64,000 bases of DNA. Origin: an uncultured Bacillota bacterium (GTDB lineage: Bacteria > Bacillota > Dethiobacteria > DTU022 > UBA8154). Positions 24,444-62,674 of the stretch are shown here, piece after piece. How positions within the stretch are numbered: the first letter of the stretch is position 1; every line of letters begins with the position of its first letter. Under the pieces are notes generated by a model. That model was not told the DNA's origin, ran no database searches, and worked only from the letters and a program-made list of their open reading frames with translations. The translations under genes and the position numbers were made by a program. The stretch covers positions 7,550-71,549 of the forward strand of contig CALJJZ010000002.1 in NCBI GenBank assembly GCA_937973635.1, in the 5' to 3' direction.

Positions 24444-26364
24444 TGTCACCCCCTGTCAGGACCACCTGCAGTAATTCTTCCACGTTATGCACATAGGTAA
24501 TCTCCAGATCTGCAATAGCCGGGGGCAGTTCCCCCTTGTTGCCGGCAGGCAAAAATACCCTTTTAATGCCTGCCACCCTGGCACCGTAAAGTTTTTCCGA
24601 CAAACCGCCCACCGGTTGGATGCGGCCCTGCAAAGAGAGCTCCCCGCTAATGGCCATATCCTGCCGCAGGGGTAGCTCCTTTACAGCGCTGTAAAGGGCC
24701 AAAAACAAGGCTGCCCCGGCGGAGGGGCCGTCCACATTGCCTCCTCCCACCACGTTGAAATGGAGATCATAATCGCCGAGCTCCAGCCCCGTTAATTTTT
24801 GCAGGACAGAGGTGGCATTAAAGACGGAGTCCCGGGCCATTTTCCCCGCAGCTTCGTTAAAACGGACCTTGCCCCGGCCGGGACTGGAAGCGGGGAAAGC
24901 CAGGGCCTCGATCTCCAGGACAGACCCCCGGTAAGCGGCGGCGGCAAGACCGAAAACTTTGCCCACCAGAGGCGTCTTGATCTCGGAGGGAGGCTTTAAA
25001 GGCGCCAGGCGATTGCTCAAGATCACTTCCCTGATGATTTCCGTGTCGATGACCACAAGCTGATCCTTATGCCCGGCGTTAAAAAGGGCCAGGCCGTAGG
25101 CGTCGGCCAACAGGTTTACGGCCTGTCTCCCTTCGCTTGTATAGCGGCAGATAAGCTCGGCGGCTCCCGGGTCTAGGCGCACCTCCAGCCTGGCCGCCGC
25201 CCTTTCCACGATCTGCCTGATACTGGCGGGCGAAAGGGGTTCAAAAAACACGGCACTGCAGCGGGAACGCAGGGCGTAAGAGAGCTCCTGCGGGGACCTG
25301 GTGGTAGCACCGATAAGCACAAAATCAGCCGGTGCCCCTTCAGTAAAAAGCTTCTTTATATACTTGGGCACCTGCGGATCGCTGGGATCATAATAAGCCG
25401 ATTCAAATCTAACCCGTTTGTCTTCCATCACTTTTAACAATTTATTTTGCAGCTGCAGGTCCATCTCCCCGATCTCGTCAATAAACAAAACTCCTCCATG
25501 GGCTTCCGTTACCAGCCCCGGCTTTGGTTCGGGGATACCCCCTTCGCTCAGATCCCGCCTAGCGCCCTGGTAGATGGGGTCATGGACGGAACCGATGAGG
25601 GGGTTGGTAACCTCCCGGGGGTCCCAGCGCAGGGTTGTAGCATCCACCTCCACAAAAGGGGCATGGGAGGCAAAAGGGGAACGGGGGAACTTTTTGGCCG
25701 CCTCCAGCGCCAGGCGTGCCGCGGCCGTCTTGCCTACACCGGGAGGCCCGTAGAGCAAAATATGCTGGGGAAAGGGCGAGACAAGGCGGGACATCAGGGC
25801 CCGCAGGCCCTGGTTCTGCCCCACAATCTCTTCCAGGGAAGCCGGCCGTAAAAATTCCATGGCAGAACGGCTAAGGCCCTGGGTCTGCATCTTCTCCAGC
25901 AAGGCATATTTTTTCAACGTCTGGGGGTTTTCGGGCCCCGCTTCTTCCTTTAGAAGCTGTTTTTTTACCTCCAGGATATAAGCATCGTGCCGCTCCTGCA
26001 GTTTATGGTTTATTTTCTGTTCCAGGGACTCTTCTATAGAACGACGGGCAAATAACTCTGCCGTTTTCTCCTCCAGTTCCTCCAAAATTAACGGTATCTC
26101 CCGTTCTTCGGGCACCGGCTGCAAAGTGGGGTCCTCCCAAACGATACGCCTGAGCCCCAGCACTTTTTTATCCAGCCGCCGGGAGCGAATTAAGGATAAG
26201 GCGTCCATCTTTATCGCTTTTAAAAGCAGCCGGTCCGCACCATAGAAATCCACCAGCAGTTTGTAGAAAACGCCGGCCTGCCGTTCCAGATTTTTTTTAT
26301 CCGGCCAGGCACCCTTGATATTTTGGGCTTTCTGTTGTTTTTTCAGGTTATCCGGTGTGGTCAT
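24433..26364 (-). CDS. lonC: Lon-family ATP-dependent protease (sporulation LonC type)
   Basis: GPPGVGKT, LFIDEIGE and catalytic DGPSAG; typical rplI-lonC-dnaB position. Confidence 0.85.
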   Translation of the reverse strand: MTTPDNLKKQQKAQNIKGAWPDKKNLERQAGVFYKLLVDFYGADRLLLKAIKMDALSLIRSRRLDKKVLGLRRIVWEDPTLQPVPEEREIPLILEELEEKTAELFARRSIEESLEQKINHKLQERHDAYILEVKKQLLKEEAGPENPQTLKKYALLEKMQTQGLSRSAMEFLRPASLEEIVGQNQGLRALMSRLVSPFPQHILLYGPPGVGKTAAARLALEAAKKFPRSPFASHAPFVEVDATTLRWDPREVTNPLIGSVHDPIYQGARRDLSEGGIPEPKPGLVTEAHGGVLFIDEIGEMDLQLQNKLLKVMEDKRVRFESAYYDPSDPQVPKYIKKLFTEGAPADFVLIGATTRSPQELSYALRSRCSAVFFEPLSPASIRQIVERAAARLEVRLDPGAAELICRYTSEGRQAVNLLADAYGLALFNAGHKDQLVVIDTEIIREVILSNRLAPLKPPSEIKTPLVGKVFGLAAAAYRGSVLEIEALAFPASSPGRGKVRFNEAAGKMARDSVFNATSVLQKLTGLELGDYDLHFNVVGGGNVDGPSAGAALFLALYSAVKELPLRQDMAISGELSLQGRIQPVGGLSEKLYGARVAGIKRVFLPAGNKGELPPAIADLEITYVHNVEELLQVVLTGGDNDE

Positions 26365-26415
26365 AGCAGGAAAAGACTGCCCGCCCGGGCAATCTTTGAG
26401 CCAACCCCTTCCCTG

Positions 26416-51660: not shown

Positions 51661-53193
51661 ATGGCACATAAAATGAAAGTAGGCATTACGGACACCACCC
51701 TGCGCGATGCGCACCAATCCCTCATGGCCACACGTTTGCGTAGCGAACATATAATGCCCATCATCTCCCAGATCGACGAGGTCGGTTATCATTCCCTGGA
51801 GGTCTGGGGCGGGGCCACCTTTGATACTTGCCTGCGCTTTTTGGATGAAGACCCGTGGGAGCGCCTGATCAGGATGCGGGAGCTGGCGCCCCGCACCCCT
51901 TTGCAGATGCTCCTGCGCGGCCAGAACCTGGTAGGCTACCGCCACTATCCCGACGATGTGGTTGACGCTTTTGTGAGGCTTGCCGTGAAAAACGGCATTA
52001 AGATTATGCGTATCTTTGACGCCCTTAACGACACGCGCAATATGCAAAGGGCCATGCAGGCGGCAAAGGAAGCAGGGGCCCACGTGCAGGGAACTCTCAG
52101 CTATACCCTCAGCCCCCTGCATAACATTGATTATTTTGTCAACCTGGCCCTGGAGCTAGAAAAGATGGGCGCAGATTCCATCGCCATTAAGGATATGGCC
52201 GGCCTGCTGACCCCCTATGATACCTATACACTGGTGCAGCGCCTGAAAGAAAAGATCAAGCTGCCGGTGCAGCTCCACTCCCATTTTACCAGCGGCCTTG
52301 CTTTCATGGCCTATCTCAAGGGCATAGAAGCAGGCTGTGACGTGGTGGATACGGCGATCTCCTCCCTTTCCCTGGGTTCTTCCCAACCGGCCACGGAAAG
52401 TATGGTTGCGGCCCTGCGGGGCACGCCTTACGATACGGGGCTGGACCTGGAGCAACTCAGCCCCATCGCCGAGTATTTCAAAGAGGTACGCAAGCATTAC
52501 CAGATTCCCACAGAGATCGTCATGGGCGTAGATACGGCCGTCCTGAGCTACCAGATCCCCGGGGGCATGATCTCCAACCTTGCTTCCCAGCTGGAGGCCC
52601 AAGGCGCCGTCCACCTTCTGCCCCGGGTGCTGGAAGAGGTGCCCCGTGTCCGGGCCGAGATGGGCTATCCGCCCCTGGTTACCCCCTCCAGCCAGATCGT
52701 GGGGGCCCAGGCGGTGATCAACGTCATCAGCGGCGAGCGCTACAAGATCATCTCTACGGAAGTGAAGAACTACCTGCGCGGCCTTTATGGCCGGCCCCCC
52801 GGGGAAGTTGACCCGGACCTGCTGGCCAAAGTAATCGGCAATGAGACGCCGTACCAGGGCCGGCCGGCGGACCTGCTCGAGCCCGGGCTGGAAAAGGGAC
52901 GGGAGGAGCTGGGCAAGTATATGGAAAAAGAAGAGGATCTCCTCTCCTATATCCTCTTTCCCCAGCAGGCCCTGGCTTTTTTCCAGCGCCGCCGCGGCGA
53001 GACGGCGTCCACGGCGGCGGCTCCCGCCGCCGAACATAAAAAAGAGGCCCCCGCCCCTGACGGCCAAAAGGGAGCTCCTGCTCCGGTACGCCCGGCGGCG
53101 GCAGAGCCCAAACTGGACCAGCTTTACACGGTGGACGGAGAGCTTTTGGCCTGTGATGATGAAGCGGCTTGCTTTATCTACCCTTCGGCCTGA
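51661..53193 (+). CDS. Carboxyltransferase of the oxaloacetate decarboxylase alpha / pyruvate carboxylase B family, no biotin domain
   Basis: LRDAHQSL, EVWGGATFD, IKDMAG, YQIPGGM and PPLVTPSSQ; no AMKM biotinylation motif. Confidence 0.85.
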   Translation: MAHKMKVGITDTTLRDAHQSLMATRLRSEHIMPIISQIDEVGYHSLEVWGGATFDTCLRFLDEDPWERLIRMRELAPRTPLQMLLRGQNLVGYRHYPDDVVDAFVRLAVKNGIKIMRIFDALNDTRNMQRAMQAAKEAGAHVQGTLSYTLSPLHNIDYFVNLALELEKMGADSIAIKDMAGLLTPYDTYTLVQRLKEKIKLPVQLHSHFTSGLAFMAYLKGIEAGCDVVDTAISSLSLGSSQPATESMVAALRGTPYDTGLDLEQLSPIAEYFKEVRKHYQIPTEIVMGVDTAVLSYQIPGGMISNLASQLEAQGAVHLLPRVLEEVPRVRAEMGYPPLVTPSSQIVGAQAVINVISGERYKIISTEVKNYLRGLYGRPPGEVDPDLLAKVIGNETPYQGRPADLLEPGLEKGREELGKYMEKEEDLLSYILFPQQALAFFQRRRGETASTAAAPAAEHKKEAPAPDGQKGAPAPVRPAAAEPKLDQLYTVDGELLACDDEAACFIYPSA

Positions 53194-53207
53194 AAAGTAT
53201 TTTTTAT

Positions 53208-53236
53208 TTGACATCGCCGGGGGCTACGGCTATAAT
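53208..53236 (+). promoter_or_regulatory. Consensus sigma-A promoter for the ilv-leu leader
   Basis: TTGACA-N17-TATAAT. Confidence 0.9.
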
Positions 53237-53251
53237 TAAAAACAATTAACC

Positions 53252-53497
53252 TAACGATGACGGGGCTGGGGCCGGGCCCACCCTCCTTAAGGACCGGTGG
53301 TGCTGAGAACCCGGCCAGAGAGGCGCCCAAGGTTGTCACCCCGGAGTTCCTCCCTGCAAATGTGTGTTACGTAGGGGCGGACGGTATACCCGTTAACGTA
53401 GAGCTTAGCAGCCTGAGGCGGCCTTGAAAAAGGCAGGAAGGGTGGTACCGCGGAGACAACTCCTTCGTCCCTTGGAAAAGGGCGGAGGATTTTTTTT
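53252..53497 (+). ncRNA. T-box riboswitch with terminator
   Basis: T-box AAGGGTGGTACCGCGG (53438-53453), CCGTTA stem IIA/B motif, antiterminator partner TTCGTCCCTT, and terminator hairpin plus T8 at 53461-53497. Confidence 0.9.
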
Positions 53498-53572
53498 AAT
53501 GGACCAAATCTCAGCGTGAGCGCAAAGGGAGGTGAAGCCCGGTTCCTCCTTGCCAAAGGGGCCGGGCGGCAA

Positions 53573-54451
53573 ATGGGTTTATTGATCTATCTGGACGGTG
53601 CTTTCATCCCCCGGGAAGAGGCCAGGGTCTCTGTTTTTGACCATGGCTACCTCTACGGCGACGGGGTTTTTGAAGGTATCCGGGCCTATGACGGCCGGGT
53701 TTTCAAACTGGAGGAACACCTGGAAAGGCTCTATGACGGCGCCCACCATATTATGCTCCAGGTCCCCTTAAACAGGCGGGAGCTGGCAGCGGCCACGCTG
53801 GAGACGTTGCGCCGTAACGGGCTTCAAGATGCATATATCCGCATTGTCGTCTCCCGGGGGGTGGGGGACCTGGGTCTGGACCCGCGCAAATGTCCCCGCG
53901 CCACCGTGGTAATTATTGCCGACAAGATCTCCCTTTTCCCTCAGGAATACTACGAAAAGGGGCTGGCCGTGGTCACGGCGGCGACGCGGCAGCGCTGCAG
54001 CGACACCATAGAACCGCGGATTAAATCCCTGAATTACCTGAACAATATCCTGGTGAAAATTGAGGCCGTCCAGGCCGGCGTGATGGAAGCGATCATGCTC
54101 AACACCCAGGGTTACGTCGTGGAAGGTTCCGGCTCCAATGTTTTTATCGTCAACAAAAAAGGGGAGCTCATTACTCCCCCTACATACCTGGGCATCCTGG
54201 AAGGCATTACCCGCAACACGGTGATGGAGCTGGCCCTGGCAGCGGGCCTGCCGGTTCGGGAAGATATCTTTACCCGCCATGATCTCTATACGGCCCGGGA
54301 ATGTTTCCTGACGGGGACGGCCGCGGAATTGATCCCCGTTATCTCCGTGGATCGCCGTACCATCGGTGCGGGGATCCCCGGTGACCTTACACGCAGGCTG
54401 ATGGAACGTTTCCACACCTATGTGCGCAGTACAGGCATCCCCTATGCATAA
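53573..54451 (+). CDS. ilvE: Branched-chain amino acid aminotransferase
   Basis: YGDGVFEGIR, KSLNYLN, EGSGSN, LEGITR and FLTGTAAE. Confidence 0.93.
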   Translation: MGLLIYLDGAFIPREEARVSVFDHGYLYGDGVFEGIRAYDGRVFKLEEHLERLYDGAHHIMLQVPLNRRELAAATLETLRRNGLQDAYIRIVVSRGVGDLGLDPRKCPRATVVIIADKISLFPQEYYEKGLAVVTAATRQRCSDTIEPRIKSLNYLNNILVKIEAVQAGVMEAIMLNTQGYVVEGSGSNVFIVNKKGELITPPTYLGILEGITRNTVMELALAAGLPVREDIFTRHDLYTARECFLTGTAAELIPVISVDRRTIGAGIPGDLTRRLMERFHTYVRSTGIPYA

Positions 54452-60407: not shown

Positions 60408-60580
60408 AAAGCTCAAGGTTTTGTCCCGGGGCGCAGTCTCATCCCCGGCGCCCGGAAAGTTGAAGCTGACGAAGACGAGGGAAAAAAGCGGTTACCGGGT
60501 TTTGCGGCGTACCGGTTCCCGGTTTTCCGACTTTTAACTAAGGAGGTGCACGCCTGGCCCGTCCCACGGGAGGCCAGGCC

Positions 60581-62674
60581 ATGATGAAAGCTTACGCTAC
60601 AGAAAAGATACGCAATGTTGCGCTCATCTCGCATGGGGGGGCGGGGAAAACATCCCTGGCCGAAGCGCTCCTTTTTACTGCGGGGGCGATTAACCGCCTG
60701 GGCAAGGTGGAAGCGGGCAACACCACCACTGATTTTGATGCCGACGAGATCAAGCGGCAGATTACCATCAGTACGTCTCTGGCCCCCCTGGAGTGGAAAG
60801 AGACCAAGATCAACCTCATGGATACGCCCGGCTATTTTGACTTTATCGGGGAGGTGCTCTCCGCCCTGCGTGTGGCCGACAGCGCCGTGGTTACCGTCTG
60901 CGCCGTCTCCGGCGTAGAGGTGGGGACGGAGAAGGTATGGAGCTACGCCGACCAGTTCAGCCTACCCCGCCTGGTTTTTATTAACAAGATGAACAGGGAA
61001 AACGCTAATTTCAGCGCCGTGATGGAGCAGCTGCGCCAGTTTTTCGGGCTCCACGTCTTCCCCTTGCAAATACCCATCGGCCAGGAAGATTCTTTCCGCG
61101 GCGTGGTGGACCTGGTGAAGATGAAAGCCATGCTCTTCCAGGAGGACGGCCTTAGCTTTAAAGAGGCGGAGATCCCCGACGAGCTCCTTGAGCGGGCTAC
61201 GGAATTGCGGGAGCAGCTGGTGGAAGCGGCTGCCGAAGCCGACGACGCGCTCATGGAGAAATACCTGGAAGAGGAAACCTTGAGCGAAACGGAAATCCAG
61301 ACGGCCCTGCGCAGGGGCACCTTGGAGGGGAAAATTGTGCCTGTGCTCTGCGGCGCGGCTACCTTAAACATAGGTATGCAGCCCCTCCTCGACCTCATGG
61401 CCACAGCCCTGCCTTCGCCGGCAGACCGTCCCGCTGCTGTGGGTCTTCTTCCCGGCAAGGAAGGGGAAACCACGGAGAGGAAAGCCGCGGTGGAGGAACC
61501 TTTCTCTGCCCTTGTGTTTAAAACCCAGGCGGACCCCTATGTGGGGCGGATCAACTATATGCGCGTCTATTCCGGCCTGCTCAACGCCGATTCCCAGGTT
61601 TACAACGTGAACAAGGATAAAATGGAGCGCATTGGCAACCTTTTCTATATGCGCGGCAAAACCCAGCTTTTAACGTCCCAGCTCGTTGCCGGGGATATCG
61701 GCGCCGTGGCGAAACTGGCCGTGACCGGAACAGGCGATACCCTGGCGGATAAAAACCATCCGCTCCTTTACCCGGCAGTGGAGTTTCCTTCCCCGGTGAT
61801 CTCCTTCTCCCTGGAGCCCAAAACACGGGGGGACGAAGATAAAGTGAGCGCCGGCCTGGCCCGTTTTATTGAAGAGGATCCCACCTTCCGTGTGGAGCGC
61901 AATACGGAGACAAAACAGCTCATCGCTTCAGGCATGGGCGATATGCACCTCGACGTGATTGTGGAGCGGCTGGCCAAGAAATTTGGCGTGGAAGTAACCC
62001 TCAAGACGCCCCGTGTCCCTTACAAGGAGACGATCCGCCGCGGTGCCAAAAAAGAAGGGAAGTACAAGAAACAAAGCGGCGGCCGCGGCCAGTACGGCCA
62101 TGTCTTCCTCGAAGTCAACCCCCTGCCCCGGGGCGAAGGCTTTGTCTTTGAAGATAAGATTGTGGGCGGCGTGGTGCCCCGGCAATATATACCGGCCACG
62201 GAAAAAGGAGTTGTGGAAGCCATGGAAGAAGGCTCCCTGGCCGGCTATCCCATGGTGGATATGCGTGTGACCCTTTACGACGGTTCCTACCACACTGTGG
62301 ACTCCTCGGAGATGGCCTTTAAGATCGCGGCGGCTATGGCCCTGCGGGGCGCGGTGGAGCAAGCCGACCCGATCCTGCTGGAGCCGATTATGAACGTGGA
62401 GGTTACGGTACCAGAGAACTACATGGGCGATATCATGGGCGACCTGAACAGCCGTCGCGGCCGGATCCAGGGCATGGTCCCCGGACAGGGCCTGCAGACC
62501 ATTAAAGCCCAGGTCCCCATGGCCGAGATGTTCAACTACGCCATTGACCTGCGCTCCATGACCCAGGGGCGGGCCTTTTTCAGCATGACCTTCTCCCACT
62601 ATGAAGAGATGCCCCACCAGGAGATGGAAAAAGTGATCGCTGCGGCCAAAGCGGAGAAAAAAGAAGAAAAATAA
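60581..62674 (+). CDS. fusA2: Elongation factor G-like protein (EF-G2 type)
   Basis: SHGGAGKTSL, KRQITI (not RGITI), DTPG, NKMN, YKKQSGGRGQYG and MTQGRA; not in the str operon. Confidence 0.88.
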   Translation: MMKAYATEKIRNVALISHGGAGKTSLAEALLFTAGAINRLGKVEAGNTTTDFDADEIKRQITISTSLAPLEWKETKINLMDTPGYFDFIGEVLSALRVADSAVVTVCAVSGVEVGTEKVWSYADQFSLPRLVFINKMNRENANFSAVMEQLRQFFGLHVFPLQIPIGQEDSFRGVVDLVKMKAMLFQEDGLSFKEAEIPDELLERATELREQLVEAAAEADDALMEKYLEEETLSETEIQTALRRGTLEGKIVPVLCGAATLNIGMQPLLDLMATALPSPADRPAAVGLLPGKEGETTERKAAVEEPFSALVFKTQADPYVGRINYMRVYSGLLNADSQVYNVNKDKMERIGNLFYMRGKTQLLTSQLVAGDIGAVAKLAVTGTGDTLADKNHPLLYPAVEFPSPVISFSLEPKTRGDEDKVSAGLARFIEEDPTFRVERNTETKQLIASGMGDMHLDVIVERLAKKFGVEVTLKTPRVPYKETIRRGAKKEGKYKKQSGGRGQYGHVFLEVNPLPRGEGFVFEDKIVGGVVPRQYIPATEKGVVEAMEEGSLAGYPMVDMRVTLYDGSYHTVDSSEMAFKIAAAMALRGAVEQADPILLEPIMNVEVTVPENYMGDIMGDLNSRRGRIQGMVPGQGLQTIKAQVPMAEMFNYAIDLRSMTQGRAFFSMTFSHYEEMPHQEMEKVIAAAKAEKKEEK

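Follow-up and report, generated by a model that had tools for sequence, protein, structure and literature searches.

A hairpin that shortens the path between a Shine-Dalgarno (SD) sequence and a distant start codon was described in phage T4 (Gold, 1988; Nivinskas et al., 1999; Malys and Nivinskas, 2009, all as reviewed in PMC3014915 and PMC7297116). Upon folding, the SD-AUG distance decreases from 22 to 5 nt at gene 38 and from 27 to 11 nt at gene 25 (PMC3014915, PMC7297116). Efficient initiation was shown by mutations and probing to depend on the structure in between (PMC3014915), stem-stabilising mutations in gene 25 raise or maintain translation, and such sites have been termed noncontiguous or split (PMC7297116). 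In the literature that we found, experimental proof of a split ribosome binding site (RBS) is essentially limited to these two T4 genes, and we found no paper describing a split site on a cellular gene of Bacillota.

The name 'split ribosome binding site' was also given to E. coli thrS (Sacerdot et al., 1998, as described in PMC3936740). In the initiation regions (TIR) of thrS and rpmE, as presented in PMC3936740 and PMC7297116, the ribosome tolerates a long stable hairpin in its binding region without melting it, a likeness to the ilvE leader as we interpret it below. Unlike in ilvE, the SD of thrS, rpmE and rpsA is placed by these accounts at a normal distance from the AUG (PMC3936740, PMC7297116, PMC1805508), and the hairpin of thrS and rpmE is described there as lying between the SD region and a single-stranded enhancer or standby segment further upstream, and as serving also as the operator of an autoregulatory protein. 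Leader RNA can also act on access to the SD, as in the translational T-boxes of actinobacterial ileS and in SD-sequestering riboswitches, the class that an earlier note on the ilvE leader studied here had in mind. The ilvE leader differs from these: its T-box comes with a terminator of the classical kind, including a U-run, past which the SD is found unpaired, and no conserved sequestering helix was seen. Lastly, STAB-SD mRNAs, such as that of Bacillus thuringiensis cryIIIA, possess in addition a functional RBS next to the gene. They share with ilvE a strong SD-like sequence far 5' of the start codon in a Bacillota leader.

The ilvE locus and its probable T-box

We analyzed a 64-kb stretch (64,000 nt) of a contig from an uncultured Bacillota bacterium, hereafter the window. 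Between positions 51661 and 62674 of the forward strand, the gene order is pycB-like, ilvE (preceded by a probable T-box), ilvD, ilvB, ilvN, leuC, leuD, fusA2 and ddl (features in Table 1). The order from the pycB-like gene to ddl was conserved in two related loci (L165 and L166), and a third one (L167) had the same order plus an extra Iso_dh (leuB-like) gene between leuD and fusA2. The Pfam domain Aminotran_4 was annotated on the IlvE orthologues. Positions 53200 to 53800 were identical in contigs from two independent metagenome runs, which excludes an assembly artefact in the leader; a run search found the leader sequence in DNA metagenomes only.

The T-box model RF00230 aligned with the ilvE leader over its whole length (positions 1-219 of 219) with 57.6 bits, under the gathering score of 93, and an E-value of 4.9e-12. 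Read from this model alignment, the specifier is probably GUC (Val), located in GGUUGUCACCCC. The T-box of the ilvE-ilvD-ilvBN-leuCD operon would carry a valine specifier and not one for Leu or Ile. The same GTC-A specifier was found in the orthologues whose upstream sequence reaches it, except L007 (GUA, Val) and L082 (GCC). All 17 ilvE leaders compared below have the T-box motif, in a variant form in L007, and terminators equivalent to that of the window are present in the relatives. The terminator of the window was not listed by a simple pattern scan for terminators. An unconserved stretch of about 29-30 nt separates it from the SD of ilvE.

Table 1. Coordinates of the leader features in the window
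Feature	Position	Strand	Basis or remark
Sigma-70-type promoter TTGACA-17-TATAAT	53208-53236	+	12/12 matches; 12 nt 5' of the T-box match
T-box leader	53248-53475	+	Full-length RF00230 covariance-model match, under the gathering score
T-box sequence GGGTGGTACCGCGG	53440-53453	+	
T-box intrinsic terminator, stem UCCUUCGUCCC/GGGCGGAGGA then U8	53461-53497	+	Read from the sequence
SD sequence GGGAGGTGA of ilvE	53527-53535	+	
Spacer hairpin, 5' arm GCCCGGUUCCU	53537-53547	+	
Spacer hairpin, loop CCUUGCCAA, 9 nt	53548-53556	+	
Spacer hairpin, 3' arm AGGGGCCGGGC	53557-53567	+	
ilvE CDS, branched-chain amino acid aminotransferase, 292 aa	53573-54451	+	ATG 53573
fusA2 (EF-G paralogue) leader: AAGGAGGTG, hairpin 60552-60579, CATG, ATG 60584	60540-60586	+	
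lonC-like gene after rplI: SD-like AGGGAAGGGG 26414-26405, terminator-like hairpin 26397-26371, 6 nt, ATG 26364	26362-26414	-	

A hairpin within the SD-ATG spacer of ilvE

The only good SD for ilvE in the window is GGGAGGTGA, of which eight nucleotides, GGAGGUGA, are complementary to the canonical 3' end of 16S rRNA. It stands 40 nt from the ATG, and a 31-nt hairpin (53537-53567) lies within this gap, followed by GGCAA before the start codon. Within 18 nt of the ATG, the strongest SD-like pairing is that of AAAGGGG, at only −7.0 kcal/mol, and this segment belongs to the hairpin's 3' arm. Where an SD can be recognised, most other genes of the window have pairings of −10 to −19 kcal/mol. The earlier note had placed a strong SD upstream and none next to the ATG, with coordinates that proved correct. 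It had also drawn GCCCGG (53537-42) paired with CCGGGC (53562-67) around an inner CCTT/AAGG stem. In place of these two stems, RNAfold gave a single continuous 11-bp stem with a 9-nt loop. In this fold, 4 + 5 = 9 nt stay unpaired from GGAGG to the ATG, in agreement with the 9 nt or so that the note had estimated after looping out. As the helix base has a width of its own, the true SD-ATG distance would exceed these 9 nt and fall among the longer working distances.

The predicted energy of the hairpin was −22.3 kcal/mol in a 61-nt context and −19.4 kcal/mol for the hairpin alone, with a mean unpaired probability of 0.95 for the SD in its local context. With a context of 102 nt (53499-53600), the GGGA part of the SD could pair with an upstream UCUC and had unpaired probabilities of 0.18-0.63. 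On the same 102 nt, we compared the minimum-energy fold with the one that the earlier note had proposed as its alternative, in which CCUCCUU (53545-51) pairs with AGGGAGG and hides the SD. This anti-SD segment takes in the upper end of the 5' arm and the first nucleotides of the loop, and the fold that it forms has an energy of −25.5 kcal/mol vs. −33.9 kcal/mol for the minimum-energy fold.

On a single sequence, the stability of the ilvE hairpin was not better than that of dinucleotide shuffles (z of −0.28 and +0.19), with a G+C-rich composition, and hence the test had to be comparative. No RNA family matched the hairpin region, even at E-values up to 10. Two other roles were considered and rejected: a second terminator or attenuator, as there is no U-run 3' of the hairpin and the terminator scan listed none there, and a leader peptide starting at TTG 53550 or at the GTG internal to the SD, neither of which has an SD at a working distance or is conserved.

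Comparison of ilvE leaders across the clade

We compared 17 distinct ilvE leaders from Dethiobacteria-type genomes and metagenomes, namely the window, L001 to L011, L081, L082, L084, L087 and L166, the last one added later. The orthologous loci are mostly labelled Dethiobacter or Dethiobacteria. At every locus whose IlvE is 71-83% identical to that of the window, we observed the same layout: the T-box and its terminator come first, then an A+T-rich stretch that varies, then GGAGGTGA and a hairpin, which a short tail connects to the start codon. No start-adjacent SD was conserved in these orthologous leaders. In the outgroup ilvE loci, where IlvE identity is at most 68%, an ordinary SD precedes the start by a few bases. 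In the IlvE tree, the hairpin carriers form one clade (support 100/99, one change), for which a single origin suffices.

When folded singly, 16 of 16 leaders had a hairpin beginning 3-5 nt 3' of GGAGG, and L166 did likewise. The SD positions G3, G4, A5, G6, G7 and G9 were invariant among the 16 leaders. The hairpins of the 17 leaders vary in sequence, in length (29-41 nt) and in energy (−10.8 to −21.1 kcal/mol), with a linear SD-to-start distance of 37-52 nt. The unpaired remainder of this distance was 6-13 nt, with a median of 8; the ilvE leader of the window has 9. For comparison, the SD-start spacing of the window's ordinary genes is mostly 5-11 nt, with one at 2 nt. The linkers flanking the stem measure 3-5 nt in most ilvE leaders, and the stem-to-start part reaches up to 9 nt. 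Two leaders, L010 and L087, have lost the ATG and start at a GTG or TTG two codons downstream, with 12 unpaired nt. The size of the hairpin thus drifts and the unpaired spacing is conserved, as one would expect from selection on the distance after folding rather than on the size or sequence of the hairpin. The mean unpaired probability of the SD was at least 0.9 in 11 of the 17 leaders (range 0.42-0.99).

Covariation among the orthologous leaders, which the earlier note had named as a check, was present. RNAalifold recovered the stem from an unguided MAFFT alignment, with 7 of the 11 pairs supported by compensatory changes. In a model-fitted alignment, which leans towards the structure and with which the independent MAFFT/RNAalifold result agrees, 89.8% of the cells pair vs. 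81.0% in shuffles and 33-60% in slid registers, and the covariation score was 0.49 vs. 0.30 in shuffles; for both measures, none of 500 shuffles reached the observed value. The stems contain G-U pairs, which fit RNA on the sense strand only. A palindromic DNA operator is contradicted by these G-U pairs and by the covariation. The evidence for a hairpin beyond chance comes from the 17 orthologous leaders. Their covariation indicates that the stem is selected; it does not give the reason for this selection, and a bound factor would leave the same signal.

The comparison also fixes the start codon. Initiation at GTG 53516, in frame in the window and raised by the earlier note as what would count against its interpretation, is excluded by five orthologues (L005, L006, L007, L009 and L010) that have in-frame stops and no in-frame start before the ATG, and the ilvE start is thus ATG 53573. 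The spacer lengths across the leaders are not multiples of three, which also argues against an upstream start. As for the anti-SD segment, a spacer CCUCC was found in the window and in L009 only, and in L009 it is part of an inner stem of the hairpin.

The same layout at fusA2 and possibly at a lonC-like gene

A search with the ilvE covariance model gave a weak match (E-value of 0.009) at the leader of fusA2. We gathered the fusA2 leaders of the window and of seven orthologous loci, and in all eight AAGGAGGTG is followed, after 4-7 nt, by a hairpin of 28-47 nt, from which 4-5 nt (12 in one leader) lead to the ATG. The energies of the hairpins range from −14.5 to −26.8 kcal/mol, and the base CCTGG...C[AC]AGG is found in 7 of the 8 leaders. 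This layout is drawn from single-sequence folds, as hairpins of unequal length aligned too poorly in MAFFT for a covariation count. A fusA2 outgroup (68% identity) has an ordinary SD (AAGGAGG, 8 nt, ATG). The homologous start of fusA2 is the second ATG (60584), and a proximal GGGAGG (60567-72) is buried in the hairpin. The leaders of ilvE and fusA2 approach a common format, GGAGGUG-N3-RYCYGG...CCRGRY-N4-5-AUG. Since fusA2 has no T-box, the SD-hairpin-ATG arrangement is independent of it.

On the other strand, a lonC-like gene has no proximal SD in the window, and its leader may be a third split RBS that doubles as the terminator of rplI. In the orthologues L168 to L171, an SD-like GGAAAGGAGG precedes a hairpin that has a U-run, and the ATG comes 6-13 nt later. 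This case is weaker, because the SD-like run of the window can itself pair.

The ilvE covariance model revealed no further copies, either in the 64-kb window or in those fetched loci that were searched with it, and a pattern scan of about 60 kb of related contigs likewise found none. A high-copy palindromic repeat family was also considered and found unconvincing, with 34 matches vs. 16 expected (about two-fold), mostly in coding sequence. A separate observation concerns the MAG contig JAGVAS010000014.1, which has tandem copies of GGAATGTCCCCGAT in both its ilvE leader (L002, about 2370-2440) and its fusA2 leader (L163, about 890-960); this tandem repeat is absent from the other relatives. Overall, ilvE and fusA2, with the lonC-like gene as a weaker third, raise the tentative possibility that hairpin-bridged RBSs are a recurrent, lineage-specific design of the initiation region in Dethiobacteria. 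If true, this recurrence would point to a portable RBS-plus-hairpin cassette, or to a trait of the ribosome or of a factor in this lineage that favours a structured spacer.

A probable split RBS bridged by the hairpin

These observations suggest that ilvE is probably translated from a noncontiguous (split) RBS, bridged by the spacer hairpin. By every criterion applicable at the sequence level, the putative ilvE site belongs with the type of T4 genes 38 and 25. Sites of this type have an SD more than about 20 nt from the start and no usable proximal one (40 nt here; 37-52 nt in the 17 leaders), a stable hairpin confined to the spacer with SD and AUG outside the stem, a folded spacing of about 5-13 nt (6-13 nt here) and a structure conserved by compensatory change (7 of 11 pairs; 0 of 500 shuffles), all of which were found at ilvE. 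As in the T4 genes, the SD is linearly too far away, the hairpin is contained wholly in the spacer and folding would restore the distance (from 40 to 9 nt); the hairpin is likewise kept in one clade and absent from more distant relatives. Unlike the phage genes, ilvE is chromosomal and belongs to a housekeeping biosynthetic operon behind a T-box, its stem is longer (10-15 bp), and its layout recurs in the same lineage at fusA2 and possibly at a third gene.

In the mechanism that we propose, read-through of the valine T-box terminator would yield an mRNA exposing the single-stranded SD GGGAGGUGA (53527-35), 40 nt 5' of the AUG, and the intervening 31 nt (53537-67) would fold at once into a stable hairpin. 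The 30S subunit would then bind the 8 exposed nucleotides of the SD without melting the hairpin, which would remain folded beside the mRNA track. Some 9 unpaired nt, 4 before and 5 after the stem, would link the SD:anti-SD helix to the AUG in the P-site, which is a normal working distance. By analogy with the T4 precedent, initiation would proceed with the hairpin folded, and the hairpin would be required for the translation of ilvE. Without its pairing, the sole SD would be too far from the start codon, hence the selection that keeps it. The device would be constitutive and not a switch, setting the geometry and probably the efficiency of initiation, and the regulation by valine supply would be exerted by the T-box at the level of transcription.

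Alternative explanations for the hairpin

A trans-acting regulator, either a protein or a small RNA, could bind the hairpin of both ilvE and fusA2, an explanation with which the split geometry may also hold. The similar stem base at two unrelated genes (GGAGGUG-N3-RYCYGG...CCRGRY) and the match of the ilvE covariance model to fusA2 are what such a site could produce. However, the loops and upper stems are conserved neither in sequence nor in length, the letters of the stem base covary (C-G to U-A at two positions), the hairpin region corresponds to no known RNA family, and no candidate regulator gene is evident beside the operon. We thus regard a regulator site as unlikely.

It is quite improbable, in our opinion, that the upstream SD acts as a standby site or stabiliser of the cryIIIA STAB-SD type, with an inhibitory hairpin that must melt and a folded geometry that is not used. 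Stabilisers resembling an SD are established at 5' ends in Bacillus, and the window does have the weak AAAGGGG, 11 nt 5' of the ilvE ATG. However, a separate RBS at the gene, as in the STAB-SD mRNAs, was seen neither in the window nor in the relatives, and the orthologues have no conserved proximal SD. The geometry of the linkers is conserved as well: they remain at 3-5 nt in most leaders despite the drift in hairpin length, which a stabiliser would not require. Moreover, with stems of −11 to −21 kcal/mol at 3-5 nt (up to 9 nt) 5' of the start, initiation would be blocked if it required their melting.

The SD-hairpin could also be a portable cassette or the relic of a palindromic insertion that entered the SD-AUG spacer once in the ancestor of the clade, a frozen accident without added function, preserved since then solely because translation would be lost without the pairing. 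This proposal concerns the origin of the element and is compatible with a split RBS. The one origin on the IlvE tree and the similar stem base at ilvE and fusA2 are in its favour. Still, the absence of more copies from the window, the searched loci and the related contigs, and the enrichment of such palindromes by only about two-fold, mostly in coding sequence, make it very improbable as an account of the hairpin.

There remains the earlier note's own interpretation, which joined two proposals. The structure-assisted RBS has gained from the comparison, with compensatory changes across the clade, an unpaired SD and a folded spacing like that of ordinary genes. We give hardly any credence to the second proposal, a two-state translational switch behind the T-box in which the anti-SD pairing would alternate with the bridging hairpin: the 7-bp complementarity does exist in the window, and transcription reaches the anti-SD segment ahead of the 3' arm, so that a brief co-transcriptional fold could form, but the hairpin fold is favoured over it by 8.4 kcal/mol, CCUCC is lacking from the spacer in 15 of the 17 leaders, and fusA2 has the same architecture without a T-box. 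Neither a conserved anti-SD nor two folds of comparable energy, as expected of an SD-sequestering switch, were found at ilvE, and neither a second state that is conserved nor a trigger that could shift the balance is apparent.

Significance and gene annotation

With a split RBS as the preferred explanation, ilvE would be a cellular, chromosomal example of such a site, documented by natural covariation across a class-level bacterial clade and with a parallel case at a second gene. Bacterial ribosomes would then routinely accommodate hairpins of 29-47 nt inside the SD-AUG spacer. Should the recurrence across genes turn out to be a lineage trait, the significance would be greater. Regulation of the ilv operon would also follow a simpler logic than previously proposed: a valine T-box and, downstream of it, a structured RBS that acts constitutively.

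A hairpin-bridged SD matters for annotation too, as gene callers place the starts too far upstream, apparently by seeking a start near the distal SD. Indeed, public gene calls extend ilvE to 306 aa in L166 (3086-4006) and 308 aa in L167 (1504-2430), for an expected length of 292 aa. The fusA2 gene of L163 (1001-3115) was called at 704 aa and is demonstrably over-extended, about 695 aa being expected, and further fusA2 homologues are listed at 704-715 aa vs. the same 695 aa or so.
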